Positions 7,085 through 64,000 of a DNA stretch of 64,000 nucleotides are shown here, one piece after another. The stretch is from contig CAXBJY010000008.1 in assembly GCA_963976285.1 (NCBI GenBank), positions 14,414 through 78,413 of the forward strand, given 5' to 3'. This stretch comes from an uncultured Gammaproteobacteria bacterium (GTDB lineage: Bacteria; Pseudomonadota; Gammaproteobacteria; Ga0077536). Below the pieces are notes generated by a model, which searched no databases, was not told where the DNA came from, and saw only the letters and a list, made by a program, of their open reading frames with translations. The position numbers and the translations under genes are program-made. The number at the start of each line of letters is the position of its first letter. The stretch's first letter is position 1.

Positions 7085-7447
7085 GATGAAACCGTTGCGT
7101 GGCTCTCGTGGTCGCAGCGTGCAGTATCCGGGCTTCCCGGCGCGACGCCAACTCGTCGTGCCCCGGCCTCGCGACAGTTCGCCAGCGCACGCGAAATTCA
7201 TGAAATAATGAACCGGCAGCGCGGCTTTGTTGTCACGCTAACAGTAGAAGCGGTCGCGAAACGCAATGCGGCGATGCCGGGAGCCGTTTTTCGGCAGTCC
7301 GGGGCATCCCGTGGCCACACGGCGTTTCGCGACCGCTTCCCGACGAAAAAAAGTAAACAAATTCGCCCGGCCGGCAACGGCGGGGCGCGCTGGTTCAGAA
7401 CGGGCGCTTGCGCATCGCCGCAGGCCCACCGAGGTAATGAATTAATC

Positions 7448-13129: not shown

Positions 13130-13333
13130 TCACCGATCGAATTCGAGTTCGACCACCGGTTGCGTGATCCCGGACGCCGCCTGCGCGTGCCACTCGATAC
13201 ACCATTCGGTGCAGAAGATGAGGTCGGCTTGCTGTTCGGACGCCGACGTGAGGCCGGCGTCGTAAATGAGCACGCCGCAGTTATCACACTTCACGTACTT
13301 TTCGATGTAGTAACCGTTCTCCGCGAAACGCAT
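13130..13333 (-). CDS. 67-aa Cys-rich mini-protein (Zn-ribbon/TRASH-like; acetone-carboxylase-gamma-like partner of hydantoinase B)
   Basis: MRFAENGYYIEKYVKCDNCGVLIYD…ADLIFCTEWCIEW: CxxC … FCxxxC motif. Its ATG overlaps the TGA of the upstream hyuB (TGATG), implying translational coupling. Confidence 0.55.
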   Translation of the reverse strand: MRFAENGYYIEKYVKCDNCGVLIYDAGLTSASEQQADLIFCTEWCIEWHAQAASGITQPVVELEFDR

Positions 13334-27008: not shown

Positions 27009-29111
27009 ATGAGTTACATCGTCGCGACGGATGTGGGGGGTACCTGCACCGACACGGTGATCGCATCCGATGACGGCCACATCGAAATCGGCAAAGTGCT
27101 GTCGACCCCGCCGCAGTTCGCGAACGGGGTGCTCGATTCCGTGCGCACGACGGCCGCCGCGATGGGCCTGACGCTCGAGCAACTGCTCGCCGACACGCGG
27201 CTGTTCGTCCACGGCTCGACCGTCGTCGACAATATCCTGCTGACACACAGCGGCACGGCAACGGCGCTGCTGACGACCGCGGGCTTCGAGGATACGCTGC
27301 GCGTCACCCGCGGCGCCTACGGCCGCTGGGCCGGCCTGCCCGAAGACCAGGTGAAGCATCCGGTCGCCACGGACCGCCCGCCGCCGCTCGTCGATATCGC
27401 CGATGTCGTGGGGATCCGTGAACGCATCGATTACCAGGGCGCGGTGGTCGAAGCCCTCGATGAAGTCGCCGCGGAGGCCGCGATCCGCGAATTGCTCGCC
27501 GATGACCGGATCGGCGCGGTCGCGATTTGCCTGTTGTGGTCGTTCCGCAATCCCGCGCATGAAACGACGCTGCGCGACCTCGTACGACGGATCGCACCGG
27601 ATTGTTTCGTCTGCACGTCCGCCGACATCGCGCCGCTGCCGGGCGAATACGAACGCACCTCGACGACCGTGATCAACGCTTACGCCGGCACGGAAACGCA
27701 GCGCTACGTCGAACAGCTGCAGGCGCAACTGCAGGCCGCGGGCTACACCGGGCCGCTGCTCGTGATGCAGGGACACGGCGGGCTCGCGAATGCCCGCGAC
27801 GCCGCGGTCCGCGCCGTGTCGATGATCGAATGCGGTCCCGTCGCCGGTCTCATCGGCAGCCGCCATCTCGGCGAATTGCTCGACGATCGCAGCATCATCG
27901 CCGTCGACATTGGCGGCACGACATCGAAAGTCGGCGTGATCCGCGACGGCGCGCTCGAATACGCGCGCGAACCGATGGTCAACCGCTATCACTATCTCGG
28001 ACCGAAAATCGAAGTCGCCTCGATCGGCGCCGGCGGCGGCAGCATCATCACGCTCGAGGCGGATTCGCTCGCGCCGCGGGTGGGGCCGAAAAGCGCCGGC
28101 GCGAGCCCGGGTCCCGTGTGTTACGGCCGCGGCGGCGAACAGATCACGCTGACCGACGTCCTGCTGCTCGCCGGTTACATGGATCCCGGGCAGTTCCTCG
28201 GCGGTCGCATGCGTCTCGACCTCGAGCGTTGCCGCAGCGAGTTCGCGCGCCAAATCGCCGACCCGCTCGGCATGAGCATCAGCGAAGCCGCGTTCGGGAT
28301 TTTCCGGGTCGCGGCGTCGCAGTTGACGGATCTGATCCACGAGATCACGGTCGAACGCGGGCTCGACCCGCGCGATTATTCGCTGCACGCGTTCGGCGGG
28401 ACGTGTCCGATGCTCGCCGGCGTGTTCGGCGCGGAGCTGAACGTCGCGCGCATCGTCGTGCCGTACACCGCGGCGGTGAACTGCGCGTTCGGCCTCGCCG
28501 CGTCCGACGTCGTGCACGAAATGGCGCTGCCGGTGCTCGTGCCGTTACCGGTCGATCCCGACGCGTTGAACCGGGAATTCGCGCCGCTCGTCGAACGCGG
28601 ACGCGCGGCACTCGCGAGCGAGGGATTCGAGCCCGGGCGGATCCGCATCGAATGCGCCGCGGCGCTGCGCTACGGTTTGCAGGTGCACGAAATCATCACC
28701 CCGCTCGACGTCACCCCGCCGCTCGATGGCGCCGCGCTCGAGCGCCTCGCGGCGACGTTCGAAGCGCTGTACGAACAGCGCTACGGCGCCGGTTCGGCCT
28801 ACCGCGAAGCGGGGATCGAAATCACCGGGCTGCGCGTGACCGCGCGCGGCTTGCTGGAACGTCCGCAATTCGTCACCCGCGACGTCGCCGGGCCGGATTC
28901 CACCGCCGCACAGATCGGTCGCCGCGCGATCTTCGTCGAGGCGGCCAACGATTTCGTCGACTCGCCGATTTACGATTTCACGCAGTTGCTGCCCGGCAAC
29001 GTCGTCGCCGGCCCCGCCGTTATCCACACGCCGGTGACGACGATCGTCGTGCAAGGCGACCAGGTCGCGCGCATCGATGCGACCCTGAACACGATCATCG
29101 AACGGGCCTGA
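27009..29111 (+). CDS. hyuA: hydantoinase A / oxoprolinase family protein (second copy, 700 aa)
   Basis: MSYIVATDVGGTCTDTVIASDD…, IAVDIGGTTSKVGVI…; paralogous to the 15057..17093 gene. Confidence 0.85.
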   Translation: MSYIVATDVGGTCTDTVIASDDGHIEIGKVLSTPPQFANGVLDSVRTTAAAMGLTLEQLLADTRLFVHGSTVVDNILLTHSGTATALLTTAGFEDTLRVTRGAYGRWAGLPEDQVKHPVATDRPPPLVDIADVVGIRERIDYQGAVVEALDEVAAEAAIRELLADDRIGAVAICLLWSFRNPAHETTLRDLVRRIAPDCFVCTSADIAPLPGEYERTSTTVINAYAGTETQRYVEQLQAQLQAAGYTGPLLVMQGHGGLANARDAAVRAVSMIECGPVAGLIGSRHLGELLDDRSIIAVDIGGTTSKVGVIRDGALEYAREPMVNRYHYLGPKIEVASIGAGGGSIITLEADSLAPRVGPKSAGASPGPVCYGRGGEQITLTDVLLLAGYMDPGQFLGGRMRLDLERCRSEFARQIADPLGMSISEAAFGIFRVAASQLTDLIHEITVERGLDPRDYSLHAFGGTCPMLAGVFGAELNVARIVVPYTAAVNCAFGLAASDVVHEMALPVLVPLPVDPDALNREFAPLVERGRAALASEGFEPGRIRIECAAALRYGLQVHEIITPLDVTPPLDGAALERLAATFEALYEQRYGAGSAYREAGIEITGLRVTARGLLERPQFVTRDVAGPDSTAAQIGRRAIFVEAANDFVDSPIYDFTQLLPGNVVAGPAVIHTPVTTIVVQGDQVARIDATLNTIIERA

Positions 29112-29115
29112 ATCC

Positions 29116-31161
29116 ATGGATCCGATCACGTTTTCGATCATTCGCCACCGCCTGTTCCGGATCGTCGACGAGGCCGTGATCACGCTGAAGAACGTGTCCG
29201 GCAGCGCGATCACGAACGAGGGTCACGACCTCATGGTGTCGCTGTACCGCGCGGACGGTTCGCTGCTCATGGGCGGGGTCGGATTCCTGCACCATCTCAC
29301 GAGCGCCGCCGAGGCCTGCCAGTCGATCATCCGTCGCTTCAAGGGTCGCATCGAACCCGGTGACGTCTACCTGCTGAACGATCCGTACACCGCCGCGCTG
29401 CACACCTCGGACGTGTATCTCGTGGCCCCGATCCACGTCGGCGACGAACTCGTCGCCTGGAGCGCGTGTTTCGTCCACGTCTACGACATCGGGGCGAAGA
29501 ATCCCGGCGGTTTCTGCCCCGATGCCGACAGCATTTATATCGAGGGCTTCAGCTCGCCGGGGATCCGCCTCGTGCGGCGCGGCGAAATCAACCGCGACGT
29601 GTTCGATACGCTCATGAACATGGTGCGCTCGCCGGAAATGGTCGCGCTCGACATCTCCTCGATGATCGCGTGCAACAACGTCGCCCGCGAACGCATGGTC
29701 GCGCTCGTCGAGAAATACGGCGCCGCGACCGTCGACGCCGCGTGCTCGGCCCTGATCGAGAATTCCGAAACGAAACTGCGCGAACGCCTGCGGAGCCTGC
29801 CGGACGGCCAGTGGCGCTCGCGCCAGTACCTGAACGTCGGCGAGGACATCTCGCGCATTTGCCTCACGATGACGAAGCGCGACGACGAACTGCACTTCGA
29901 TTTCACGGGTTCGAGCGCGCAGAGCCCGTATGCCGTGAACTGCACGCAATGGGCCTCGCTCGGCGGCCTGTTCGCGCCGCTGTTCCCGCTGCTGTGTTAC
30001 GACATCACGTGGAACGAAGGCGTGATCCGGCCGATCCGCATGACCGCCCCGGCCGGTTCGATCGTGAACTGCACGCGCCCGGCGCCGGTGTCCGTCGCCA
30101 CGGTCGGCGCGATCCAGTCCGTGAACAATGCCGCGTGCGCGACGATCGGCAAGCTGCTCGCCACGAGCGATGAGTACCGGCGCGAAGCGACGGCGGTGTG
30201 GCATGCGAACCATTTCGCGATATTCAAATTCGGCCGCAACCAGCACGGGCGTGATGCGATCGGGATCCTGACGGAAACGTTCGCCGGCGCCGGCGGCGCG
30301 CGCACGTTCGCCGACGGGATCGATGTCGGCGGCGAGATCCCGAATCCGATTTCACGCATGGCTAATGTTGAAACGATCGAAAACCTGTTTCCGATCCGCT
30401 ACCGCTATCGCCGCCTCAGAACGGATTCCGGCGGCGCCGGACGCTATCGCGGCGGCGCCGGTATGGAACTCGCGATCACGGCGCACGATGCGCCGGACGG
30501 CGGCATCCACTACGTCGTCTCCGGCAAGGGCGCAGCGTTCCCGATGAGCGACGGCCTCGGCGGCGGCTACCCGGGCGCGCCGAACGCGTATTACTGGCAC
30601 GCCGCGGACGGTACGACGCAAGCCGTGGACTGGGGCGTATTTCCGCTGTTCGGCGAGGACGCGCTCGAAGTGCGCTGGAATGGCGGCGGCGGGGTTGGTG
30701 ACCCGTTGCAGCGCGACCCGCGCGCCGTGGCCCGCGACGTCACGGCCGGCCTCGTGTCCGGCGATGCCGCGCGCGAGTTGTACGGGGTCGTCATCGCGGG
30801 CGCGGACGTCGATGCCGCGGCGACGACGGCGGCCCGGGCCGCGATCCGCGCCAGCCGGCTCGGCGGCACCGCACCGGAGGCGAACGACCCAGTCCCTGAT
30901 GCCGCGATCGTCTTCGATGGCAAAACGGTTGCCTGCGCCGCCTGCGGGCAGCATCTCGCCGATCCGGGCAGCGCGTGGAAGACCGCTGCGCGGCAGGTCG
31001 CACGCACGATGTCCGGCGTGATACCCGCCTATACGACGATCGCGGCGGTGAGCTTGCGCGAATTCGTCTGCCCGGGCTGCGCCACCGTGCTCGACACCGA
31101 AACCGTGTGCGACAACGATCCCCCCTTACTCGATTACCTTGGAGTCATTCCCGATGCATGA
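29116..31161 (+). CDS. hyuB: hydantoinase B family protein (second copy, 681 aa) with ~100-aa C-terminal Zn-ribbon-like extension
   Basis: MDPITFSIIRHRLFRIVDEAVITLKN…DPYTAALHTSDVYL… = HyuB. The tail …GKTVACAACGQHLADPGSAWK…REFVCPGCATVLDTETVCD carries CxxC…CxxC, absent from the 575-aa paralog. Confidence 0.85.
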   Translation: MDPITFSIIRHRLFRIVDEAVITLKNVSGSAITNEGHDLMVSLYRADGSLLMGGVGFLHHLTSAAEACQSIIRRFKGRIEPGDVYLLNDPYTAALHTSDVYLVAPIHVGDELVAWSACFVHVYDIGAKNPGGFCPDADSIYIEGFSSPGIRLVRRGEINRDVFDTLMNMVRSPEMVALDISSMIACNNVARERMVALVEKYGAATVDAACSALIENSETKLRERLRSLPDGQWRSRQYLNVGEDISRICLTMTKRDDELHFDFTGSSAQSPYAVNCTQWASLGGLFAPLFPLLCYDITWNEGVIRPIRMTAPAGSIVNCTRPAPVSVATVGAIQSVNNAACATIGKLLATSDEYRREATAVWHANHFAIFKFGRNQHGRDAIGILTETFAGAGGARTFADGIDVGGEIPNPISRMANVETIENLFPIRYRYRRLRTDSGGAGRYRGGAGMELAITAHDAPDGGIHYVVSGKGAAFPMSDGLGGGYPGAPNAYYWHAADGTTQAVDWGVFPLFGEDALEVRWNGGGGVGDPLQRDPRAVARDVTAGLVSGDAARELYGVVIAGADVDAAATTAARAAIRASRLGGTAPEANDPVPDAAIVFDGKTVACAACGQHLADPGSAWKTAARQVARTMSGVIPAYTTIAAVSLREFVCPGCATVLDTETVCDNDPPLLDYLGVIPDA

Positions 31162-53119: not shown

Positions 53120-53145
53120 CCTCCCCTTCAACCGTGAAGGGGAGG
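53120..53145. terminator. GC-rich hairpin CCTCCCCTTC-AACCGT-GAAGGGGAGG between convergent AMP-ligase and hlyD genes (no U-tract)
   Basis: Perfect 10-bp inverted repeat seen directly; compositionally related to the 35725-35751 hairpin. Confidence 0.4.
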
Positions 53146-53213
53146 AACTCCCCAAGGGTATCAACCCCGACACGAACCCGACGCCCGCCTGGCACGGCAT
53201 CCGAACCGCGGCG

Positions 53214-54566
53214 TTAACGCTCACGAAAACCCTCGTCGCGGTAGCGCAATAACGGCGCGGCGAGGAATTCGATCAGGCGGCGGCGACCGAGTTTGATCTC
53301 CACCGTCACCGCCATCCCCGGCGCGAGATTCGCGACCCGGTCGGCGGTCTCGATCGTCGTGCGCTCGAGGCTCACTTGCGCCGGATACACGAGCCCCTGC
53401 TTCTCATCCGCGATCGCATCGTGCGCGACATGTGTAATGCGGCCGTCGATCGTGCCGTATTGCGTGAACGGGAACGTCTCGACCTTGATCTCCGCGTGCT
53501 GGCCCGCGCGCACGAAGCCGGCGTCGCGGTTCGTGACGAACGCCTCGACGACGAGCGCGCCATCGAGCGGCACGAGCAACATCAGTTGTTCCGCCGGGGT
53601 GACGACTCCGCCGATCGTATGCACGGAGAGCTGGTGCACCGTGGCCGCCTCCGGCGCGCGCAGAACGCGCTCCCGGATCTGCATTTCCGCCTTGCCGATC
53701 TCGGGTTCGATCGCGGCGAGTTCCGTTGCGAGCGTTGCCCGCGATTCGATCAGCCGCGAGCGTTCGCCGGCGGCGAGCGCGCGCAAACGCCTTAGCAAAC
53801 CGGCATGCGCGGCATCGAGCGCGGCGAGGCGCGCGCCGACGATACCGCGCTCGCGCTCGGTTTCGAGTCGCGGGATCTCGAGTTCAAACCAGCTCGCGCG
53901 CGACGCGAGCGAACGCGCTTCGAGTTGTGCCAGCGCGTTCGCGCGTTCCGTGAGCAGCGGCAAGGTCGCGTCGAGCATGGCAAGACGCCGTTCGCTGGCG
54001 AGACGTTCCGCGCGGTTCTCCGCGGCCGCGTCCTCGAGTGCCGCGCGCTCGGCGTAATGCGCTTCGAGCTGGCTGTCGATGCGGCGCCGGATCGCCATCG
54101 GCGTGGCCGCGATCGCCACGTTCAGTGGATGCCCGGGCGCGCGATCGAGGTAAGCGGCCGCGGTCGGGAACGCCGCGAACGCGCGTAACTGCAATTCCAG
54201 TGCGCGCAGTTCCGCGGCCATCGCATCGCGCGCAACGCGCAGGCGGCGCAAGTCGGCGCGAGATTTCTCGTCGTCGAGCTGGATCAGCGGATCGCCGGCG
54301 GCGACCGTCTCGCCTTCGCGCACATGGATCGCACTGACCACCCCGGCCTCGAGCGGCTGCACCGTCTTCACCCTGCCGGTGGGGACGATCCGGCCTTGCG
54401 CGACGGCCACGACATCCACCCGCCCGAGCACGGACCAGCCGAGCGCGAACGCAAACAACGTCATCACGCTCCACAGGATCGCGCGCGACGCCGGCAGCGG
54501 CGGCGTGTGTTCCACTTCGAGCACGGCCGGCAGAAACGCGCAAGACTCACGCGAGCGGGACATCAC
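53214..54566 (-). CDS. HlyD family type I secretion periplasmic adaptor subunit
   Basis: N-terminal TM, long coiled-coil (…RALELQLRAFAAF…), C-terminal beta-barrel/lipoyl-like …VTVEIKLGRRRLIEFL…. Confidence 0.8.
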   Translation of the reverse strand: MMSRSRESCAFLPAVLEVEHTPPLPASRAILWSVMTLFAFALGWSVLGRVDVVAVAQGRIVPTGRVKTVQPLEAGVVSAIHVREGETVAAGDPLIQLDDEKSRADLRRLRVARDAMAAELRALELQLRAFAAFPTAAAYLDRAPGHPLNVAIAATPMAIRRRIDSQLEAHYAERAALEDAAAENRAERLASERRLAMLDATLPLLTERANALAQLEARSLASRASWFELEIPRLETERERGIVGARLAALDAAHAGLLRRLRALAAGERSRLIESRATLATELAAIEPEIGKAEMQIRERVLRAPEAATVHQLSVHTIGGVVTPAEQLMLLVPLDGALVVEAFVTNRDAGFVRAGQHAEIKVETFPFTQYGTIDGRITHVAHDAIADEKQGLVYPAQVSLERTTIETADRVANLAPGMAVTVEIKLGRRRLIEFLAAPLLRYRDEGFRER

Positions 54567-54594
54567 TCGCCCCCTGGATGCGCGGCGTGAAGCA

Positions 54595-56733
54595 TCACCC
54601 TGCGGGCTCGGCCTGCAGGCGCACGAGTTCAGCGTAATAACCGTCCCGCGACACGAGCTCCGCGTGACTGCCGCACTCGACGATACGACCGTCGTCGATC
54701 ACGATGATCCGGTTCGCGGCGCGCACGCTGCTGAGGCGGTGCGCGATCAGGAACACGGTGCGACCGCCGCAGATCCGGCGCAGGTTACGCCGGATCACGG
54801 CTTCCGATTCGACGTCGAGCGCACTCGTCGCTTCGTCGAAAATGAGGATCCGCGGATCCGTGATCAGCGCCCGCGCGATCGCGATCCGCTGGCGTTGTCC
54901 GCCGGAGAGATTGCTGCCCTGTTCGCCGACGATCGTGTCGTAACCGGCCGGCAGATCGAGAATGAAGTCGTGGGCGCCGGCGAGTTCCGCCACGTGCATG
55001 ATCCGTTCGAGCGGCAGGGTCGGATCCGTGATCGCGATATTCTCGCGCACGCTGCGGTTGAACAGCCGGTTCTCCTGCAGCACCACCCCGATGCGACGGC
55101 GCAACCACGCGCTGTCGACGAGCGCGAGATCGATCCCGTCCACGAGCACACGCCCCGCGCCCGGTACGTACAGGCGCTGGATCAGTTTCGCGAACGAACT
55201 CTTGCCCGAGCCCGAACGGCCGACGATGCCGATCATCTCGCCCGGCGCGACATCGAGCGTGATGTCGCGCAACACGTCCGGCCCGTCCGGGCGATAGCGG
55301 AACGTGACCGCCTCGAACGTCACCCGCCCGCGAACGTCCGGCAGCGAAGCGCGGCTCGACACGGCGGCGGGTTCCGCGGGCGCGTTCAGAATGTCGCCGA
55401 GGCGACGCAATGAAATCGCCGCTTGCTGGAAGTCCTGCCACAACTGCACGAGGCGCAGGATCGGTCCGGACACGCGCGCCGCGATCATATTGAACGCGAC
55501 GAGTTGACCCACCGTAAGCGCGCCGTCGATCACGAGCCGCGCGCCGAACCACAGGATCCCGAGGATCATCAGCTTGTTGGTCAAACCCGCGATCTGGGCC
55601 GCCACGTTCGACAGGTTCGTCGCGCGGAAACTCGCGCCCACGTAGGCCGCGAGGCGTTCTTCGAAGCGCCGTTGCGTGGCCGGCTCGATCGCGCCGGCCT
55701 TCAGCGTTTCGATGCCGCTGACGGCTTCGACGAGATAGGCCTGGTTGTCGGCCCCGCGATCGAATTTCTCGTTCAGCCGATGACGCAACACCGGGGTCAC
55801 GAACAGCGCGAGCGCGATGTAGCACGGCAACGTGGCCACAACGACGATGGTCAACATCGGGCTGTAGGCGAACAACACGGCGAAGAACACGAGCGTGAAC
55901 GTGACATCAACAATGAGCGTGAGCGCGGAACCGGTGATGAAATTGCGCAACGTTTCGAGTTCGCGCACCCGCGCGACGACATCGCCCACCCGGCGCGCCT
56001 CGAAATACGCGAGCGGCAGGCGCAACAAGTGCCGGAACAGCTCGGCCCCGAGCGCGACGTCGATCCGGTTCGCCGTGTGCGAGAACACGTACGCGCGCAA
56101 CCCGCCGAGCCCGGCATCGAACAGCGACACGACGAGCAGCCCGAACGCGAGCAGATCGAGCGTGGTGAGACTGCGGTGCACGAGTACCTTGTCGACGACG
56201 ACCTGGAAGAACAGCGGCGTGACGAGCGCGAACAACTGCAGAAAGAACGACGCGAGCAGCACTTCCGAAAAATAGCGCCGGTACTTCAGGATAAACGGCG
56301 CGAACCAGGCGAGGTTGAACTCGCGCCGCCCGCTGGCTATCCCGGCGCGGCGGGTGAGCAGGATCAGCTCACCGTTCCACTGCGACTCGAACTCGGATTT
56401 CGAGATCTCCCGCGGCGCCGGATCGCACGGATCCCGGATCAGCAACCTGTCGCCGCCGATCGCCGCGAGCGCAACGAAGCGATCGTCGTCCAGGCCAACG
56501 ATGCACGGACACACCGCGTCGTGGAGACGCCGGCGGGCCGCACGCATCCGGCGCGAGCGCAAGCCGAGCCAGCGCGCCGCGCGCACGATGTCGGCACTTG
56601 TGAAGCAGCGATCATGCGCGGCGAACTCGTGCTTCAGTTCATGCGGATTCGCGCGCACTTCGAGGAAACGCGCGATCAGCACGAGACTCATCAATCCGGT
56701 ATCCGCATCCTGCGGAGTTGCGTGTGCCTCCAT
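54595..56733 (-). CDS. type I secretion system permease/ATPase (HlyB-like) with N-terminal C39-like domain lacking the catalytic Cys (CLD type)
   Basis: Met 45 of track ORF (MEAHATPQDADTGLMSLVLIARF…). Six-TM ABC exporter core; Walker A GRSGSGKSS, signature LSGGQRQRIAIARAL, Walker B ILIFDEATSALD. Confidence 0.8.
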   Translation of the reverse strand: MEAHATPQDADTGLMSLVLIARFLEVRANPHELKHEFAAHDRCFTSADIVRAARWLGLRSRRMRAARRRLHDAVCPCIVGLDDDRFVALAAIGGDRLLIRDPCDPAPREISKSEFESQWNGELILLTRRAGIASGRREFNLAWFAPFILKYRRYFSEVLLASFFLQLFALVTPLFFQVVVDKVLVHRSLTTLDLLAFGLLVVSLFDAGLGGLRAYVFSHTANRIDVALGAELFRHLLRLPLAYFEARRVGDVVARVRELETLRNFITGSALTLIVDVTFTLVFFAVLFAYSPMLTIVVVATLPCYIALALFVTPVLRHRLNEKFDRGADNQAYLVEAVSGIETLKAGAIEPATQRRFEERLAAYVGASFRATNLSNVAAQIAGLTNKLMILGILWFGARLVIDGALTVGQLVAFNMIAARVSGPILRLVQLWQDFQQAAISLRRLGDILNAPAEPAAVSSRASLPDVRGRVTFEAVTFRYRPDGPDVLRDITLDVAPGEMIGIVGRSGSGKSSFAKLIQRLYVPGAGRVLVDGIDLALVDSAWLRRRIGVVLQENRLFNRSVRENIAITDPTLPLERIMHVAELAGAHDFILDLPAGYDTIVGEQGSNLSGGQRQRIAIARALITDPRILIFDEATSALDVESEAVIRRNLRRICGGRTVFLIAHRLSSVRAANRIIVIDDGRIVECGSHAELVSRDGYYAELVRLQAEPAG

Positions 56734-57136
56734 GGCCGATCCGTGATCCTTGCGTGCTGTTTGCAACGGGCGATCGTTGCGTGATCGCGCGCAACCCGCG
56801 TTCGAGCGGGCTGCAGCTTGCGTGGGATTGAATCTAGCGCGCCCCGTTGCGCGACGCCCAGACACGAGGACGCGTAATGATCGATGCGCGAAGCACGGTA
56901 ATTAACTGAACACCCGACGGAATCACCCGGGCTCCCGTCGCGCCGGTACTGCCGCGCCGAACGCACAAGGACCAATTCCCGGCACCGGCCGTCGCAAACC
57001 CGCGCGCAATGATTGCCAGCGGGACCCGCACCGCCGTTCGCGGCACCCGGCAACCCGACGCGGCCAAACCGGCGCCCGTAGTTCCCGTAACACAAATTTT
57101 GTATGCTGCCAGCCCCATTCGCATTGAGGCGAACCG

Positions 57137-57688
57137 ATGCTGGAAATCGATTTTTCCGGTCCCTGGGCGTTGCTGCCAAACGCCGACAACGTGCCCTACC
57201 TGCTGGCAGCACCCGCGGCGTGGGGGCCCGGTATCTACCTGTGGACGTTTCTGTTCAACCAGGCGCACCGGATGAACCGGATCGAAGCCGTGGGGGACAG
57301 CATCGCGGCGCGACACGAGGAAACCCTCGCCGCATTTCTCGCCGGCAAACGCACCGTGTATCGCGCCGCCGAACTCGACGCGGGCACGTTGATCCCGGCG
57401 TATTCCCCGACGGACGATCGCGACGCGTTCATCGCGGCCTACCCCGATGTTATGCATCACGTCTCGAGCCTGCGCGTGTTCTACGCGCCGTACGACGGCG
57501 ACGATGCAATGCGCGAACGGATCGCCATCGCACTCACGGCGCACTTCCATCGCCTCGGCGGCAAAGCCATCGCGTGGCTGGAGAACGAACCGGTAAGTTA
57601 CGATGCAAACGCTGACGCAAACCCGATAACGCTGCGCATCGGCAGACCCGCCTTCGTCGCCAGCCTGCCGGACGAAATGCACCTGTAA
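57137..57688 (+). CDS. hypothetical protein (183 aa)
   Basis: Coding-like high-GC ORF (MLEIDFSGPWALLPNADNVPYLLAAPAAWGPGIYLWTF…); no recognised motif. Confidence 0.45.
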   Translation: MLEIDFSGPWALLPNADNVPYLLAAPAAWGPGIYLWTFLFNQAHRMNRIEAVGDSIAARHEETLAAFLAGKRTVYRAAELDAGTLIPAYSPTDDRDAFIAAYPDVMHHVSSLRVFYAPYDGDDAMRERIAIALTAHFHRLGGKAIAWLENEPVSYDANADANPITLRIGRPAFVASLPDEMHL

Positions 57689-57772
57689 TATGCGGCAACG
57701 ACAATGCGCGCGTTCGCCACGCTGCGCGATAGTGATGAATCAACACGGGGAACGGCGCCTGTGATCCGCCTC

Positions 57773-58183
57773 ATGATCCTGGCGCTCACCCTGACATCCC
57801 TGGTCGGCTGCACCAGCCCCCCGAACCCACAGCTGAACGCGTTCACCACGGACGGCTGCAGCAGCTTCCCCAACGGCACCCGCGATAACAAAACCCTGTG
57901 GCTGCACTGCTGCACGGCACACGACGTCGCCTATTGGCAGGGCGGCACGCGCGAAGAACGTCGCGCGGCGGATTTCGCGCTGCGTGAATGTGTGGGCGCG
58001 ACCGGCGAGACGACGATTGCGAACCTGATGCTGGCGGGGGTGTGGATCGGTGGGTCGCCGTATTTGCCGACGTCGTTTCGGTGGGGGTATGGGTGGCCGT
58101 ATCCGCGGGGGTATGGGGCGTTGGATGGGGAGGCGCGGGGGATGGTGGTGGAGTTGTTGGAGGCGTATCGGCGTAGTCGGTGA
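57773..58183 (+). CDS. hypothetical lipoprotein with Gly/aromatic-rich C-terminus
   Basis: Met 24 of track ORF 57704..58183. MILALTLTSLVGC lipobox; …CSSFPNGTRDNKTLWLHCCTAHD…. Last host-composition gene before the low-GC island. Confidence 0.5.
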   Translation: MILALTLTSLVGCTSPPNPQLNAFTTDGCSSFPNGTRDNKTLWLHCCTAHDVAYWQGGTREERRAADFALRECVGATGETTIANLMLAGVWIGGSPYLPTSFRWGYGWPYPRGYGALDGEARGMVVELLEAYRRSR

Positions 58184-58604
58184 CTCGGTTTACTTTCGTT
58201 GCGGGTGCTGCGAATTGGGACGATACGGATAGGCGCGGCGCGCCTGCATGCGGCGCTCGGCTTCGTTGAGCAAACTGCGGAGATACTTGCAGACGAAACC
58301 GCTCTGTGGGGCGGCTTTCATGAGCCGGGTTTTATCAGATGCTTGTTACCGGACTATGGATTAACGCGACGCAACAGCATCCCGCTGATCCCCTCCGAAG
58401 CTTCCCGAAACGCTGCATTGCAATATTTTCTGGCTCTTCAACTGCGACTTCTTGCAGATGAGAAATCCTGCTATCTTCTGTGCCAGTAGCGTTCCGGGAT
58501 TGACGTGATATGCAGATTCTACATAGAGCAGCAGTACGTCGTTCTGCGTATTTCGAGTATGCGTAATTTCTCTAAACCGCTGTTAGGCGGTAGGAGCAGA
58601 AGTA

Positions 58605-58844
58605 TTGTCGCGTAATAATCGTTACCTCCCGATACTAATGGGCTTTGGATCTTTTGCGCTGGCCATATGGCTTGCTATGGGTCATGTATCGTGGTGGAAA
58701 GCTATTCTCGGCGCCCTACTGCTTATGTTTGGTTGGGGTTCATTAAGAACGGGAATTAGCGCTTCGGATGAGGAAATTGAAGAATTGACCTCGCCGAAAC
58801 CTTTATCTGAAAGTACGAGGAAAAAATTCGAAGAACGATTTTGA
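58605..58844 (+). CDS. small membrane protein (79 aa, 2 predicted TM helices, charged C-terminal tail)
   Basis: TTG start with AGGAG SD 8 nt upstream (internal ATG at 58638 lacks SD). MSRNNRYLPILMGFGSFALAIWLAMGHVSWWKAILGALLLMFGWGSL…. Confidence 0.5.
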   Translation: MSRNNRYLPILMGFGSFALAIWLAMGHVSWWKAILGALLLMFGWGSLRTGISASDEEIEELTSPKPLSESTRKKFEERF

Positions 58845-58860
58845 AACGAATGCAGCAGAG

Positions 58861-59151
58861 ATGAATCCAGCATTATTGATAACAGCGGCCGGCCCTATTC
58901 TTGGGGCAATCGGTCTGTATGGGGGAATCGACTGGCTATTTTGGTCAGGAATAGTCATAGCACTACTAGCGTTGTTTCTGAATTTGGCTTCCGGAATATT
59001 GAAAGCACCTGTACTGCCCGGACTGTGCGTAGTCGTGGGTGCGGCGGCGATAACCCCCTGGTATCACGGTGCCGGAGTCGGGCTTCTAGTTTGGACGGCG
59101 TTGGAAACCGCCGGAGAAATTGTGGGCCTTCGCAAAGAAGGCAGACTATAA
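58861..59151 (+). CDS. small membrane protein (96 aa, 3 predicted TM helices)
   Basis: MNPALLITAAGPILGAIGLYGGIDWLFWSGIVIALLALFLNLASGIL…; 16-nt gap from the upstream small TM gene (same cassette). Confidence 0.5.
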   Translation: MNPALLITAAGPILGAIGLYGGIDWLFWSGIVIALLALFLNLASGILKAPVLPGLCVVVGAAAITPWYHGAGVGLLVWTALETAGEIVGLRKEGRL

Positions 59152-59158
59152 ACGTGCC

Positions 59159-59268
59159 GCCTAAAAAACGCTGCAGTCCAACCCATTACAGTGCGCTTTT
59201 CCAGCGTACCTTCGGATTTTCCCGCTTCCAAAGCGCACTGCAACGGGCTGCATCGCGCGGCGTTAGAT
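59159..59268. repeat. attC-like imperfect palindromic element 1 (GCCTAAA…CAGTGCGCTTT…AAAGCGCACTG…GTTAGAT)
   Basis: Perfect 11-bp core inverted repeat 59189-59199/59230-59240. Outer arms GCCTAAAAAACGCTGCAG vs CTGCATCGCGCGGCGTTAGAT also partly complementary; ends in the GTTAGAT core 14 nt before the next ATG. Confidence 0.45.
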
Positions 59269-59281
59269 TACGCGCACACCT

Positions 59282-61042
59282 ATGATTCTGCCTGACGTGA
59301 CACGCGTCCTTGAATCCTTTACGGCGTCGGGCGAAGCTGAGGCTATCTCTATAACAGGCGATTGGGGCGTAGGGAAAACGTACTACTGGAGGTCATTCGT
59401 TGGTAGCTTGAGTCAAAGAAACGACCTTCAATTCACAAAGTATTCGTATGTATCTTTATTCGGGCTGTCATCCCTGCCCGAAGTACGTGACGCGATATTT
59501 GACAATGCAGTTCCTTCCGAAGAGATTTCGGCTGAGCCGTCGCTCTCTTCTTTCTTCGGAAATCTAGCTGCGATTACCGATTCCGGAGGCGCGCTTTTCG
59601 CAATCAAGGGCGTTTTCTCAAGAGCTCGGAAGCACTTAGGAACTATAGAGAAGGTGCCCGCAATTAGCAGGGTTTCTCCATTTCTACGAGCCGCGTCCTA
59701 CTTCGCCATATCGAACTATTTGGTCTGCCTAGATGATGTTGAACGCAAAGGTGAAGGTCTCTCCGGCCGCGACCTCTATGGATTAATTTCCCACCTTAAA
59801 GAGCGGCGGAATTGCAAGGTTGTGATAATCCTAAATTCCGATTCACTAGATGAATCGGAGCGTAGCGAGTATGACCAGTTTCGGGAAAAAGTATTTGATA
59901 TCGAGATGTCGTTCCGTCCTACCAAAGCAGACTGCATCAGCTTGGTTTTTGGAGATGGCTCAGATGTATCGGTGAAAGCCATCCGCTACTGCGGCGAACT
60001 TGGAATTAACAACATTCGGGTCCTGAAACGGATCCATCGAAATTTGAACTATCTGCTCCCGTTCACGGAAGGTCTAGACCCCCTACTAGAAGAACAGATC
60101 TTCCATTCAACGGTGTTACTAACATGGAGTTACAACAGCCGACAAGCCGACGCACCGGATTACGATTTCGTGAAGAAACTTGGCGTTGCGGATATGTTTT
60201 CGCTAGACGTCGAAACAACCGAGGACGACACCGAAGAAAAGGAATGGCGAGACCGACTTTGGAACTACAAATACACGTCATCGGATGAGATTGATTTAGA
60301 AATCTGTAGATTCCTCGAAAATGGGTACTTAGATAGCGATCTGTTTCGCACCGTGCTTAACCAAAAAAACAAAGAACTTACCCAGACTCATACCAGGAAT
60401 AAGTTTGAGGCGGCATGGCGTTTATTTCACGATTCGTTTAATGATAATGAAGCGGAGTTTATTGAAGAGCTGTCGAGGGCGTTTCATGAAAGCGCGAGAT
60501 GGATTAGCCGCGCTAATGTCGACGCCGCCGTCCGGATATTGCGCGACCTAGACCGATCTGAGCTAGCAGACAAATTCATCGCCCATTGGATCGACGTGCA
60601 ATCTAGAGAAAACGCCTCATCTCTAACAGCAGAGCCAGATCATTTTGATCGGGAAATAAGAGACGAATCGTTGCGTGTCGCGATCGAGAACGCTGCCGAT
60701 CAAAACATGCCGATCCCGACTCTCGATGAGATTGTTCCTAGGATTGCCGGTAATGAAGGTTGGGGACAAAAAGATGAGGAGTTCTTGTCAACTGCGTCCG
60801 TTGACGATTTCTACTATTACTTCAAAAGGACAGAAGATCGAAATCTGACGACTTACGTAAGGACATGTCTGAAATTTGGCCAGTTCCTCAATCCAACTGG
60901 GCCGATGCGAACAATATCGGGGAAAGCGATAGAAGCGCTCAGGCGGATAGAAAGTGAATCCAAGCTCAATGAACTGCGCATTCGTAAATTCGGGTTAGGC
61001 ACCAAACCGGATGACGCCCGCGTCGACAAACAATTGGATTAA
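59282..61042 (+). CDS. KAP-family P-loop NTPase (586 aa)
   Basis: N-terminal Walker A ITGDWGVGKTYYW and Walker B LVCLDDVER, characteristic of KAP NTPases; large helical C-terminal region. Confidence 0.65.
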   Translation: MILPDVTRVLESFTASGEAEAISITGDWGVGKTYYWRSFVGSLSQRNDLQFTKYSYVSLFGLSSLPEVRDAIFDNAVPSEEISAEPSLSSFFGNLAAITDSGGALFAIKGVFSRARKHLGTIEKVPAISRVSPFLRAASYFAISNYLVCLDDVERKGEGLSGRDLYGLISHLKERRNCKVVIILNSDSLDESERSEYDQFREKVFDIEMSFRPTKADCISLVFGDGSDVSVKAIRYCGELGINNIRVLKRIHRNLNYLLPFTEGLDPLLEEQIFHSTVLLTWSYNSRQADAPDYDFVKKLGVADMFSLDVETTEDDTEEKEWRDRLWNYKYTSSDEIDLEICRFLENGYLDSDLFRTVLNQKNKELTQTHTRNKFEAAWRLFHDSFNDNEAEFIEELSRAFHESARWISRANVDAAVRILRDLDRSELADKFIAHWIDVQSRENASSLTAEPDHFDREIRDESLRVAIENAADQNMPIPTLDEIVPRIAGNEGWGQKDEEFLSTASVDDFYYYFKRTEDRNLTTYVRTCLKFGQFLNPTGPMRTISGKAIEALRRIESESKLNELRIRKFGLGTKPDDARVDKQLD

Positions 61043-61134
61043 GCGGTCGTGTTTCAGCGCGCTTCCTTCCGCCGGATCCGCATTTTCACCTACACGAAAC
61101 GCGCTGAAACACGCCGATTATCCAAGCGTTAAGT
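61028..61134. repeat. attC-like imperfect palindromic element 2 (arms TTGGATTAAGCGGTCGTGTTTCAGCGCGC / GCGCGCTGAAACACGCCGATTATCCAAGC, ending in GTTAAGT)
   Basis: Perfect 14-bp core inverted repeat 61048-61061/61100-61113 extending to ~28 bp with bulges. Left arm overlaps the KAP gene stop codon. Inner GCGGATCCGC palindrome. GTTAAGT core at 61128-61134. Confidence 0.5.
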
Positions 61135-61152
61135 TTCTTTTGAGATTGAAAT

Positions 61153-62250
61153 ATGCGAGTTCTAGTTTTTGACACGAACGCCTTTGTCCAAGACTTGGGG
61201 CTAGAGGGTCATGCATTTCAGCTGCTGCTCTTGCATTTAAATGTCGTGACTGACCTAGTCGCGTTTCCGATTGTGGTACTACAAGAAACCTCGAATAAGT
61301 ATGAGGAGTTCCTGCGCAAGGTCGTCTCTGATGCGAAGAAAGCGTCTGAGCGATTCGAAAGACTTACTGGAACGGCACTAGAGCCGCCCGACCCAAGAAT
61401 AGTTGTTGAATCTATTTCTCAGTACCGCGCAAAGCTCATGTCGAAGTTTGGCGGCCTCGCTGAAGCATTCCCCTATCCGTCTATAGATCACGAATCTGTC
61501 GTTCAAAGGGCCATCCTTCGAAGGCGTCCTTTTCAAGATTCCGGGGCCGGGTACAGAGACACGATAATCTGGGAGTCGATTCTAGAAATTGCCGACAAGC
61601 CGGACATCGATTCCATTATTTTTATTACTAACAATTCGAAAGACTTCCTGGCCGAAGACCGGCTGGCACCAGACCTTATAGAAGACTTGAGAGAGCGGGG
61701 GCACCCAGACTCCTTAATTCGCACTTACGGGACGGTGAAAGCCCTCGTTGATGCTGAGATCCTGCCAAGCATCGAACAATTTAGTGAAGTAGCAACGCTC
61801 ATAGAAGAACGCAATATTCCCGGCATTGATTTCGACGCTTGGTTGCAAGATGCCTTGTTCGATTGCGTGCCGGCGGCCGATGCAGCGCGGGCGATAGCAG
61901 GGATAGCCCCCGGTGATGCCGATACAGAGCTATCTGAAATCTATGAAATCAAAGAATTCAAGGTAGAGCATGGCTATCCGCTCCCAAACGACGAGCACTA
62001 TCTAATTGTGTCCGTATTCGCAGGCGTTGGCGTGAACGTTTGCGCCAGCTGGGTGCAATACGGTGATTCGCTCGCGGTCACCGAATTGTTTGACTGTGAG
62101 GGAACGGGCCAACCAGCGCCTTACGCGTGTGTATATGCCGGAGAAGTTATTTGGATCACTTTATCCCTCGTGGTTCATTCATTAGTTCCGTTTACCTGGT
62201 CTGTTGAAATCATTTCCGTTGAGTCGACAGGAAGCGAGTCGGAAACCTAA
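61153..62250 (+). CDS. PIN-like nuclease domain protein with ~185-aa C-terminal domain of unknown function (365 aa)
   Basis: MRVLVFDTNAFVQD (first PIN acidic residue), …VVLQETSNKY… (Glu), …IIFITNNSKDF… (distal Asp pair) within the first ~180 aa. Confidence 0.55.
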   Translation: MRVLVFDTNAFVQDLGLEGHAFQLLLLHLNVVTDLVAFPIVVLQETSNKYEEFLRKVVSDAKKASERFERLTGTALEPPDPRIVVESISQYRAKLMSKFGGLAEAFPYPSIDHESVVQRAILRRRPFQDSGAGYRDTIIWESILEIADKPDIDSIIFITNNSKDFLAEDRLAPDLIEDLRERGHPDSLIRTYGTVKALVDAEILPSIEQFSEVATLIEERNIPGIDFDAWLQDALFDCVPAADAARAIAGIAPGDADTELSEIYEIKEFKVEHGYPLPNDEHYLIVSVFAGVGVNVCASWVQYGDSLAVTELFDCEGTGQPAPYACVYAGEVIWITLSLVVHSLVPFTWSVEIISVESTGSESET

Positions 62251-62261
62251 TAAATGGCTCA

Positions 62262-62343
62262 ATATGCCGCGTTACAGCGCGCTTCCCTCAGGCGGATCCG
62301 TATTTTCGCCTCCCCAAAGCGCGCCGAAATACGCAGGTTATCT
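62262..62343. repeat. attC-like imperfect palindromic element 3 (…CGCGTTACAGCGCGCTTCCCTCAGGCGGATCCGTATTTTCGCC…GCGCGCCGAAATACGCAG-GTTATCT)
   Basis: About 75% identical to element 2 over the central region (CAGCGCGCTTCC…GGCGGATCCG…ATTTTC…GCGCGC…GAAA). Ends with GTTATCT (imperfect core) 15 nt before the next start. Confidence 0.45.
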
Positions 62344-62357
62344 GAGCCTTAGAACTC

Positions 62358-63134
62358 TTGGCGGAAATTATGGCGCAATCAAACCGGAAGCAATACGGCG
62401 AAGCACAGAACGTCGCGCTGACTTCACAGGTCGGCGGCGTTTGCCCGCGCTGCGACGAGCCGCTTTTCTACAAGAAAATGGGCAAAAGTTTTAAAGCGTA
62501 TGAGGTAGCGCACATCTACCCCCTAAACCCCACCCCCGAAGAAATCGAACACCTTAAGGACGAGCCTAGACTTAGCCAAGACGTGAATGATGAAGATAAC
62601 CTGATTCCTCTCTGCAAGAGCTGTCATGGCAAGTTCGATAAGCCTCGGACAGCTGAAGAGTATCGGCAACTCGTCGAACTCAAGAAGCGCTACATCGCGC
62701 GTTCAGGCCAAGAGATATTGTGGTCTTCGCATCATCTTGAGTCTGAGATCCGCAGTGTCATCGAGGCGCTTTATGAGGAACACTTCATCGGGGCTTCAAC
62801 CGCTGTAATTGAGTACGAGCCAGCTACAATCGATGAAAAGGTCGATGACTCGATAACGAGACCTACCGTCCGAAAGATCAAGAATAACGTCAGTGATTAC
62901 TTCACGTTAATCAAGACTCATTTTTCTGAAATTGACAAGACCAATCCGAATTTTTCAGACATAGTGTCGCTACAGGTCAAGACATACTTTCTGAAGCAGC
63001 AACAGTTGGGGGTAGATAAACAAGCGATCTTTGACAATTTAGTTTCCTGGGTGCGTGTAAAAACTAAACCCCGAAGTATTGATGCTGCCGAGATATTGGT
63101 TTCGTTTTTCATCCAGAATTGCGAGGTGTTTTGA
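62358..63134 (+). CDS. HNH-family nuclease domain protein (258 aa) with C-terminal helical domain
   Basis: TTG start (internal ATG at 62370). CPRCDEP…AHIYPLNP…NLIPLCKSCHGKFDK = CxxC…H…N…CxxCH HNH zinc-finger nuclease signature. Confidence 0.65.
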   Translation: MAEIMAQSNRKQYGEAQNVALTSQVGGVCPRCDEPLFYKKMGKSFKAYEVAHIYPLNPTPEEIEHLKDEPRLSQDVNDEDNLIPLCKSCHGKFDKPRTAEEYRQLVELKKRYIARSGQEILWSSHHLESEIRSVIEALYEEHFIGASTAVIEYEPATIDEKVDDSITRPTVRKIKNNVSDYFTLIKTHFSEIDKTNPNFSDIVSLQVKTYFLKQQQLGVDKQAIFDNLVSWVRVKTKPRSIDAAEILVSFFIQNCEVF

Positions 63135-63355
63135 TGATTGTTCCCACCAAGTTCACCTCCCTAGACAAGAGCGCCTTAGGCAAATCACCAATCGTGTTGC
63201 AAGCTTTCGATCGTCCGGTTTCGGCTCACAGCTTATACAAACTCGTAGACCGCCAATTCGAGGACGTTGGCGAATTCTTGTTTACGCTTGATGTTCTGTA
63301 TGTCCTGGGATCGATTCGCCTCGACACAGCTACAGGGATGGTAGAAAAATGCTGA
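63134..63355 (+). CDS. 73-aa hypothetical protein, translationally coupled between the HNH and ATPase genes
   Basis: ATG overlaps the TGA of the HNH gene (TGATG). Its own stop overlaps the ATPase start by 7 nt. MIVPTKFTSLDKSALGKSPIVLQAFDRPVSAHSLYKLVDRQFEDVGEFLFTLDVLYVLGSIRLDTATGMVEKC. Confidence 0.45.
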   Translation: MIVPTKFTSLDKSALGKSPIVLQAFDRPVSAHSLYKLVDRQFEDVGEFLFTLDVLYVLGSIRLDTATGMVEKC

Positions 63356-64000
63356 AAGCAATCTCGTGTATAAAATTTAGCCAGGAGACGATCAGTTTCA
63401 AACCTGGCCTGAACGTTGTTGTTGGCGATGATCTGGCGACAAATTCGATCGGTAAATCTACTTTGCTGATGGTAGTAGATTTTGTCATGGGCGGATCTGA
63501 TTTCCTTGTTCACAACAACGATGTTGTGGCTGAGCTCGGCGATCATGCCTACCGCGCTGCGTTCGATTTTGTCGGCGAATCTTACTTTTTTCGCCGTGAT
63601 ACAGCGACGCCTGATGTAGTGGACCTTTGCGATAAGTCGTGGAAGGTCATTGAGGCGCTCACCATTCAGGACTATCGAGAGCGTTTAACTACCCTGTATG
63701 GCCTGAATGACGTCGGCCTAAGCTTTCGGCAGATCTGTGCTCCGTTTTCGAGAATCTGGGGAAAGCAGAACCTAAACCCTGCAAGGCCGTTAGATGCGCA
63801 TCTCAAACAATCGGCCGCAGATTCGCTGTATCTAGCGCTCAAGTTATTCCAGAAATATGACGAAGTGGAAGATCTAGAGGGGGCGCTGAAAAGCGTTCAA
63901 AACAAGGCGAGTGCACTAAATTCCGCGTTTCGCGAACAGGTTGTTCCGAGGATCACCAAGAGGAAATATAACGACAACTCTAGAAACATTTCGGAGCTCT
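63349..64000 (+). CDS. ABC/SMC-type (AAA_15/23-like) ATPase, N-terminal 217 aa only (runs off window end)
   Basis: Own translation: MLKAISCIKFSQETISFKPGLNVVVGDDLATNSIGKSTLLMVVDFVMGG… = N-terminal Walker A region typical of defense-associated ABC ATPases. No stop before position 64000, so absent from the ORF track. Confidence 0.6.
   Translation, partial: MLKAISCIKFSQETISFKPGLNVVVGDDLATNSIGKSTLLMVVDFVMGGSDFLVHNNDVVAELGDHAYRAAFDFVGESYFFRRDTATPDVVDLCDKSWKVIEALTIQDYRERLTTLYGLNDVGLSFRQICAPFSRIWGKQNLNPARPLDAHLKQSAADSLYLALKLFQKYDEVEDLEGALKSVQNKASALNSAFREQVVPRITKRKYNDNSRNISEL

Follow-up and report, generated by a model that had tools for sequence, protein, structure and literature searches.

At the right-hand end of a 64,000-nucleotide (nt) stretch of DNA from an uncultured gammaproteobacterium (contig CAXBJY010000008.1, positions 14,414 to 78,413 of the forward strand; the whole stretch is called the window below), three co-directional genes overlap each other stop to start and form an operon of about 2.6 kb. 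In order they encode a nuclease effector, a small middle component and an ATPase, and they are named here after the components of the Lamassu defence systems that they resemble.

62370..63134, forward strand: LmuA-like effector, 254 amino acids (aa), with Pfam HNH and CTD11 matches
63134..63355, forward strand: LmuC-like middle component (MC7), 73 aa, with a Pfam MC7 match and a homologous open reading frame (ORF) in 77 of 78 loci
63349..64000, forward strand: LmuB-like SMC/Rad50-type ABC ATPase, first 217 of 539 aa, assigned from DUF2326 and Foldseek

For the first gene the longest ORF is 62358(TTG)..63134 on the forward strand, but all homologues begin MAQS or MGQS and the real start is therefore taken to be the ATG at 62370, giving the 254-aa protein that is also present in public gene calls. 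It meets the second gene at TGATG (63132-63136), where stop and start share 1 nt, and the second meets the third at ATGCTGA (63349-63355), an overlap of 7 nt. The shared direction of the genes, these two junctions, the HNH motif and the Walker A motif had all been placed correctly in an initial annotation of the window, which was made from the sequence alone. The ATPase gene, whose ATG is at 63349, leaves the window after 217 aa, and the initial annotation had looked to the DNA past 64000 for the remainder. An exact look-up of the 73-aa middle protein found it on 13 contigs, mostly from TARA Oceans assemblies, one of which (L001, from scaffold_268 of ENA ERZ2783031, a 148-kb TARA scaffold) is 100% identical to window positions 53134-64000 and adds 9.3 kb beyond the window. 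On L001 the stop of the ATPase gene is reached at 64968 (window numbering), so that the full protein of 539 aa is recovered and the three proteins sum to 866 aa.

The effector is built of two parts, an N-terminal HNH nuclease domain (aa ~20-92, nt 62427-62645) and a C-terminal docking domain, CTD11 of the ABC-three-component (ABC-3C) systems (aa 119-254, nt 62724-63131). Its Pfam matches are to HNH_2/HNH and, at 1.4e-26, to CTD11, and its best PADLOC model is PDC-M68A (7e-15). The HNH motif, C25-P-R-C28, H48 (in AHIYP), N73/N77 and C82-K-S-C85-H86, is invariant in 30 homologues, and the predicted structure (mean predicted local distance difference test score, pLDDT, 77) consists of the HNH domain followed by a five-helix bundle. 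The nearest solved relative of the HNH domain, by sequence (8fm1 at 9e-6, about 25-30% identity) and by fold too, is Cap5 of the cyclic oligonucleotide-based anti-phage signalling systems (CBASS); the alignment is limited to the HNH part of the effector, aa 15-111, and in it the catalytic His falls on Cap5 His56. While the HNH domains are related, Cap5 is an HNH-SAVED protein with a CD-NTase neighbour, whereas the effector here is without SAVED and has CTD11 at its C-terminus. The gene inventory of the low-GC island in which the operon lies includes no cyclase gene. Activation here would come via release from the ATPase complex and not via a cyclic nucleotide. Cap5 is itself switched on by tetramerisation, and this fits an HNH effector whose activation is gated by oligomerisation. 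A TARA contig otherwise identical in this part, L005, has a 10-nt insertion at about window position 62896, in the CTD11 part of the effector gene, that leaves ORFs of 189 and 83 aa in its place; it may be a natural inactivation of a toxic effector, or an assembly error.

The second gene had been taken for an ORF inserted between nuclease and ATPase. Its 73-aa product matches Pfam ABC-3C Middle Component 7 (MC7) at 1.1e-14 (54.6 bits against a cutoff of 27), with a weak match to MC6, and a homologous ORF of 73-85 aa stands at the equivalent position in 77 of 78 related loci. Judged by family and position, it is a canonical component of the system and not an insertion.

The third protein has its Walker A motif, GKST, at aa 35-38 (nt 63451-63462) and matches Pfam DUF2326 at its C-terminus (5.5e-18), which places it in the DUF2326/YydD family; with PADLOC the best model is PDC-M68B (1e-15), and LmuB comes next. 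Its AlphaFold2 model (51 homologues, pLDDT 86) has a split ABC head with long helices, aa ~171-418, between the two halves, the helical coiled-coil region amounting to roughly 220 aa. A Foldseek comparison of this model with the Protein Data Bank (PDB) ranks first the integrative model of Bacillus subtilis YydD-YydB (9a6c_A, 6.5e-19), then five LmuB chains (9hqx_B, 9hqu_A, 9uxh_F, 9ux7_A and 9nyg_B, 2e-12 to 2e-10), and below these Rad50, SMC, cohesin and JetC. With the B. subtilis YydB-YydC-YydD system the operon thus has in common the DUF2326 ATPase, YydD being the top structural match, and it differs in that the partner is an HNH-CTD11 protein instead of YydB. YydB is a phosphoesterase-like protein. 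The Walker B motif reads F-L-I-H-D-S, with H-D-[S/T] invariant in the 51 homologues, and is degenerate, without the catalytic Glu; a CxxC zinc hook is present in none of the 51. Both the length, well below ~800 aa, and the form of the Walker B are those of short Lamassu ATPases, for which the signature is hhhhD[Q/S/T/E] (PMC12663957). On two further TARA contigs, L007 and L008, the ATPase gene has a deletion of ~78 nt directly past Walker B, at ~64800-64877, with a product of 487 aa, and this is apparently a second inactivating variant of the operon.

How far the three genes belong together was examined in a scan of one genome per species, which gave 286 effector relatives and 80 loci that were kept. 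These span Gamma-, Beta- and Deltaproteobacteria, Planctomycetes, Nitrospirae, Chloroflexi, Acidobacteria, Bacteroidetes, Firmicutes, Cyanobacteria and Patescibacteria. An ATPase gene lies directly 3′ in 78 of the 80, the remaining two being at contig ends, and so in 78 of the 78 loci where its presence can be judged; in the only one of these in which the middle ORF is missing the effector is disrupted. The trio, whose co-occurrence across genomes had been put forward as a check, is therefore conserved. Effector and middle gene overlap in 54 of 77 loci (46 with a 4-nt and 8 with a 1-nt overlap), and the stop of the middle ORF overlaps the start of the ATPase gene in all 77, by 7, 11, 17 or 23 nt. 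The arrangement is not due to chance and the overlaps are a family trait, one consistent with translational coupling. In the closest relatives (68-83% nucleotide identity) the homology is limited to the three genes and a leader of about 20 nt, and what adjoins the operon varies: SIR2, a DEAD/DUF3427 helicase, or type I restriction-modification. Homology confined to the trio, together with the changing neighbours, indicates that the three genes travel together from one defence-rich neighbourhood to another. A Marinobacter homologue with 89% identity bears the NCBI name "ABC-three component system protein". The original description of ABC-3C is reportedly that of Krishnan et al. 2020, and the architecture is said to have been catalogued since then.

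Because fold, Pfam ABC-3C families and gene order agree, the operon is assigned to Lamassu. The probability that it is a complete ABC-3C system, equivalent to a short type II Lamassu anti-phage/anti-plasmid module with an HNH effector, is put at roughly 0.88. It is almost certainly a defence module, and it belongs to a family that has been described before and is not a new kind of system. Type II Lamassu is the same as ABC-3C and has the order LmuA (an N-terminal effector domain plus a C-terminal domain), LmuC, LmuB, with HNH among the listed effectors (PMC10586767; 10.1101/2025.06.23.660979). HNH is, according to Haudiquet et al., an effector specific to short Lamassu (PMC12663957), while Millman et al. 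do not mention HNH. Set beside the type II systems of Vibrio cholerae (DdmABC) and Salmonella enterica (LmuACB) and the Escherichia coli Lamassu-Lipase, the operon has the same order of overlapping genes, an effector composed of an enzymatic N-terminal domain and a helical C-terminal docking domain, an LmuB fold with a degenerate D[S/T] Walker B in a short ATPase, and a defence-island setting. With the V. cholerae Lamassu clade it also has in common an ATPase without the zinc hook. It differs from them in the effector, which is HNH here and Cap4, lipase, Mrr or Sir2 in the others; in the families of the other parts, CTD11/MC7 against CTD7/MC3 in V. cholerae; and in size, all three proteins (254, 73 and 539 aa) being smaller than in the solved systems, where LmuA chains have about 355-372 aa and LmuB 562-653 aa.

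Several observations weigh against this assignment. The LmuB hidden Markov models (HMMs) of PADLOC match the P-loop region of the ATPase only (1e-5 to 1e-7). Sequence searches of the PDB, with the ATPase and the effector as single sequences and with profiles of all three proteins, reach no solved LmuA, LmuB or LmuC chain, and the link to the Lamassu chains is seen by fold comparison only. The middle protein, with its 73 aa, is far below the size of V. cholerae LmuC, whose DNA contacts are cited to residue 133, and complex assembly and DNA contacts may accordingly differ from those in V. cholerae. Among the sister contigs, one has a frameshifted effector (L005) and two an internally deleted ATPase (L007 and L008). 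Lastly, no published phage test of an HNH/CTD11-MC7-DUF2326 system was found in the literature searched, Krishnan et al. 2020 not being part of it, and searches for CTD11/MC7/DUF2326 and for YydD/YydB gave unrelated papers only.

The function most readily exchanged for anti-phage defence would be another use of the same machinery, with the ABC-3C/Lamassu architecture directed mainly at plasmids or further kinds of mobile DNA, or keeping the island or a cassette array within it stable in the manner of an addiction module. DdmABC of V. cholerae removes plasmids as well and is toxic when triggered (PMC10586767; 10.1101/2025.06.23.660979), and the operon here is part of a horizontally acquired low-GC island that also contains attC-like repeats and an insertion sequence (IS) element. 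As the main role it is nevertheless improbable: near the operon there is no toxin-antitoxin-like pair and there are no plasmid functions, and the relatives adjoin SIR2, restriction-modification and helicase defence genes as is typical of defence islands. Anti-phage and anti-plasmid roles are, moreover, compatible with each other and would be served by one shared mechanism.

A still smaller chance attaches to the proposal of the initial annotation that the locus is an undescribed three-gene defence system, or a variant of Septu with reversed gene order and an inserted small ORF. Its general reading, in which one anti-phage cassette combines a nuclease as effector, an ABC/SMC-type ATPase as sensor and a third, small component, has turned out to be right, and an HNH nuclease does stand side by side with an ABC-type ATPase, as in the combination of PtuA and PtuB in Septu. 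In PADLOC the effector and the ATPase are covered only by a candidate that is still untested, PDC-M68, and the small ORF is not modelled. What separates the locus from Septu is that a Septu operon consists of two genes, opens with the ATPase and lacks both a middle component and an ABC-3C C-terminal domain, whereas here the order is reversed and a third gene is conserved; the PtuA and PtuB models score weakly (E = 0.002 and 0.014) against 7e-15 and 1e-15 for PDC-M68A and PDC-M68B. As to novelty, the two proteins other than the ATPase belong to Pfam families defined for ABC-3C, the ATPase has a coiled-coil region and is structurally nearest to YydD and LmuB, and the small ORF is not an occasional addition but is kept in nearly every locus. 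The layout, which had seemed unlike any canonical one, is the published LmuA-LmuC-LmuB order of ABC-3C/type II Lamassu (PMC10586767, 10.1101/2025.06.23.660979); ABC-3C is defined by that order and by the middle ORF, and HNH is already a listed LmuA effector (PMC12663957; PMC10586767).

That the ATPase is a housekeeping SMC/RecN/RecF-type repair protein with accessory proteins has a negligible probability, for though its fold also matches the heads of Rad50, SMC and RecN and there is a weak NCBIfam Rad50 match, that match scores 25 bits against a cutoff of 700, YydD and LmuB rank ahead of Rad50 and SMC, the Walker B lacks the catalytic Glu, the gene is coupled to a Cap5-like HNH effector, and the operon has different neighbours in every genome and is placed here in an island whose GC content is ~50%, against 65% for the genome. 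HMM scores, together with gene order, the ranking by fold and the genomic context, lead to the rejection of the Septu, Gabija/PARIS-type and housekeeping SMC/RecN readings.

In the Lamassu complexes that have been solved, an LmuB dimer with one LmuC sequesters one LmuA, and DNA ends release LmuA, which forms a tetramer via its C-terminal domain and becomes an active nuclease (10.1101/2025.06.23.660979; PMC12663957). In the systems that were tested, defence depends on each of the three genes and on the active sites of both ATPase and effector, and it is abortive (10.1101/2022.05.11.491447). In V. cholerae the system clears both plasmids and phages and is toxic once triggered (PMC10586767; 10.1101/2025.06.23.660979). 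By analogy, a similar mechanism is likely for the short Lamassu operon described here. The LmuB-like dimer with one LmuC-like protein would keep a single effector inactive; binding of free or aberrant DNA ends, or of hairpins that arise in phage or plasmid replication, by the ATPase and middle component would lead to its release; and the released effector would oligomerise through its C-terminal domain. The HNH domain would then degrade DNA indiscriminately so that the infected cell is killed or arrested (abortive infection), the switch being gated by ATP binding and slow hydrolysis.

As a discovery the operon carries little weight, the components having their own Pfam families (CTD11 and MC7) and homologues named by NCBI, and the HNH effector having been listed already. 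Its practical value is as a compact representative of a Lamassu subtype for which no experimental test or structure was found.

The surroundings of the operon are those of an island. GC content falls from ~65% to ~50% at about window position 58200 and stays low through the end of L001 (position 20222 of that contig), more than 9 kb past the window. A non-coding stretch of 400 nt (58190-58600) lies at the drop and has GTTAGGC at its end, at 58582. The genes of the island all point the same way, beginning with two small membrane ORFs and continuing with a KAP-like NTPase gene, a gene for a PIN_12 protein and the Lamassu operon. After each of the first three of these units there is an imperfect palindrome of ~110 nt. 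The features 5′ of the operon are as follows.

59160..59271, forward strand: attC-like repeat 1; 3′ end GGCGTTAGAT canonical, 5′ end not; single-stranded DNA (ssDNA) folding z -4.7
59282..61042, forward strand: KAP-family P-loop NTPase-like protein, 586 aa; PADLOC PDC-S49 1.6e-21, Pfam KAP_NTPase weak, 1e-3
61025..61134, forward strand: attC-like repeat 2, between the KAP-NTPase and PIN genes; GACAAAC AATTG GATTAAGC ... CCAAGC GTTAAGT; ssDNA z -4.7
61153..62250, forward strand: PIN_12 protein, 365 aa; Pfam PIN_12 6e-23, N-terminal, with the C-terminal half uncharacterised
62245..62354, forward strand: attC-like repeat 3, degenerate; ACCTAAT ... CTTAGAA; 75% identity to repeat 2; ssDNA z -3.4

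The attC sites of integron cassettes are imperfect palindromes of 57-141 nt, R″(RYYYAAC)-L″ ... L′-R′(GTTRRRY), that lie between co-directional ORFs. The three repeats have 65-75% mutual identity and strong ssDNA folding (z -3.4 to -4.7), and each begins at the stop codon of the preceding gene, or a few nt from it, and leaves 11-19 nt to the start codon that follows. Repeat 3 starts within the stop codon of the PIN gene, ends 15 nt 5′ of the effector ATG, and has AAT and CTT at the positions where AAC and GTT are expected. Between the operon and its relatives, nucleotide homology sets in at 62349, where the R′ of repeat 3 has its crossover position (C|TTAGAA), and the relatives have TTAG there. 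A two-arm position weight matrix (PWM), built solely from 8 real class 1 integron attC sites on plasmids, gave repeat 2 as its top match on both strands of 73 kb, with exactly the predicted boundaries and 25.4 bits; shuffled sequences gave maxima with a mean of 16.2 and a standard deviation of 3.1, and 25.4 bits was reached by 1 of 40 shuffles. Repeat 3 scores 8.7 bits, and repeat 1, which follows the two small membrane-protein ORFs, is outside the top 15 of the scan. A covariance model of the 8 real attC sites (28+28 nt) matched none of the candidates with filters on or off, though a 56-nt model cannot span sites of 110 nt. The repeats are found nowhere else in the 73 kb examined, and a metagenome-wide scan with the repeat core returned the same TARA locus and 5 chance matches only, without sister arrays. 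A tblastn search with IntI1 found no integron integrase in the window or on L001, and nothing informative came from searches of the island for Rfam families, promoters and terminators.

The operon and its neighbours thus resemble an integron cassette array, or a cluster of attC sites lacking integrases (CALIN), in that co-directional, apparently promoterless, defence-looking units are split by ~110-nt imperfect palindromes; they differ from one in the missing integrase, in the degeneration of two of the three sites, and in that the hairpin past the ATPase stop is not attC-like (PWM 0.9 bits). That hairpin is imperfect, of ~85 nt, and begins 8 nt past the ATPase stop (L001 11843-11925, window 64976-65058); it has an ssDNA z of -3.9 and no T-run. 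On balance we lean towards regarding the repeats as a decayed, CALIN-like cluster of cassettes whose distal end is occupied by the Lamassu operon. The island itself was probably acquired horizontally, and the operon possibly came as an integron cassette. Integron and CALIN cassettes are known to carry defence systems (Darracq et al., 10.1101/2024.07.02.601686), and a setting that resembles a decayed cassette array would be one more example of such cassettes storing them.

Among the relatives, one from an uncultured member of the Moraxellaceae (L011) has a homologous trio ~630 nt from a divergent integron-integrase remnant (6644-7357, reverse strand; TIGR02249, 3e-39), and the trio is bordered on both sides by direct repeats of ~300 nt (7480-7900 and 10720-11260). 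Canonical attC-like sites follow the ATPase gene in two other loci, L078 and L024, and three loci score at least 10 bits. Over 82 loci there is no enrichment of attC-like arms at the ATPase stop (p = 0.25), and the idea that the whole family is cassette-borne is on this ground rejected. Together with the crossover-position start of homology here, the integrase remnant by the trio of L011 and the canonical sites of L078 and L024 hint at a streamlined Lamassu clade that spreads as an integron cassette, and the middle protein is so much smaller than V. cholerae LmuC that such a clade could perhaps assemble or sense DNA differently, with a Cap5-like HNH gated by oligomerisation. As a whole this picture is tentative and rather doubtful.

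The sister contigs, which come from independent metagenome assemblies, tend to break at the same places. They begin at 58120 (L002), 58136 (L003), 61000 (L007 and L008), 61056 (L006), 61123 (L100) and 62250 (L005), and five of the eight (L005, L006, L007, L008 and L100) begin inside repeat 2 or 3 or at most 25 nt from one of them. These breaks, which fall on the GC junction and on the attC-like repeats, suggest either structural variation in the population or trouble for the assembler at hairpins.

As to the other genes of the island, the KAP-like gene, which matches a PADLOC single-gene defence candidate, is probably a separate defence-related unit, and the PIN_12 gene, with a product that matches nothing in PADLOC or NCBIfam, may act by itself, as a nuclease-based defence gene or as a toxin gene. 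Two small hydrophobic ORFs, 58605-58844 (79 aa) and 58861-59151 (96 aa), make up the island's first unit; they have no family match and probably encode membrane proteins. Downstream, the order on L001 is a cold-shock/DUF1294 gene, an IS3-family element, two small ORFs, LysR, carbonic anhydrase and SulP. The first of these, directly past the operon, combines a cold-shock domain with DUF1294 (membrane) and has a weak PADLOC match to CSD_V (L001 12125-12736, window 65258-65869). The IS3-family element (L001 13005-14116, window 66138-67249) is intact on L002, broken on L001 and absent from L003, and in the DNA beyond it L003 is only 94% identical to L001 and L002.

On the other side of the GC junction, the last host-type genes before the island (53214-56865, reverse strand) encode an HlyD-family membrane-fusion protein and an ABC exporter with a C39 peptidase domain, that is, an export system of the bacteriocin/RTX type, and a beta-barrel component of the AprE type adjoins them, as seen in L001. 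Further into the GC-rich part, hydantoinase/oxoprolinase A and B genes occur as two separate pairs within 15 kb (13333-17093, reverse strand, and 27009-31161, forward strand). The host is taken to be an uncultured marine proteobacterium, the closest named relatives of its TamB having only 25-30% identity to it; it is Gram-negative, and genes for TamA and TamB are present.

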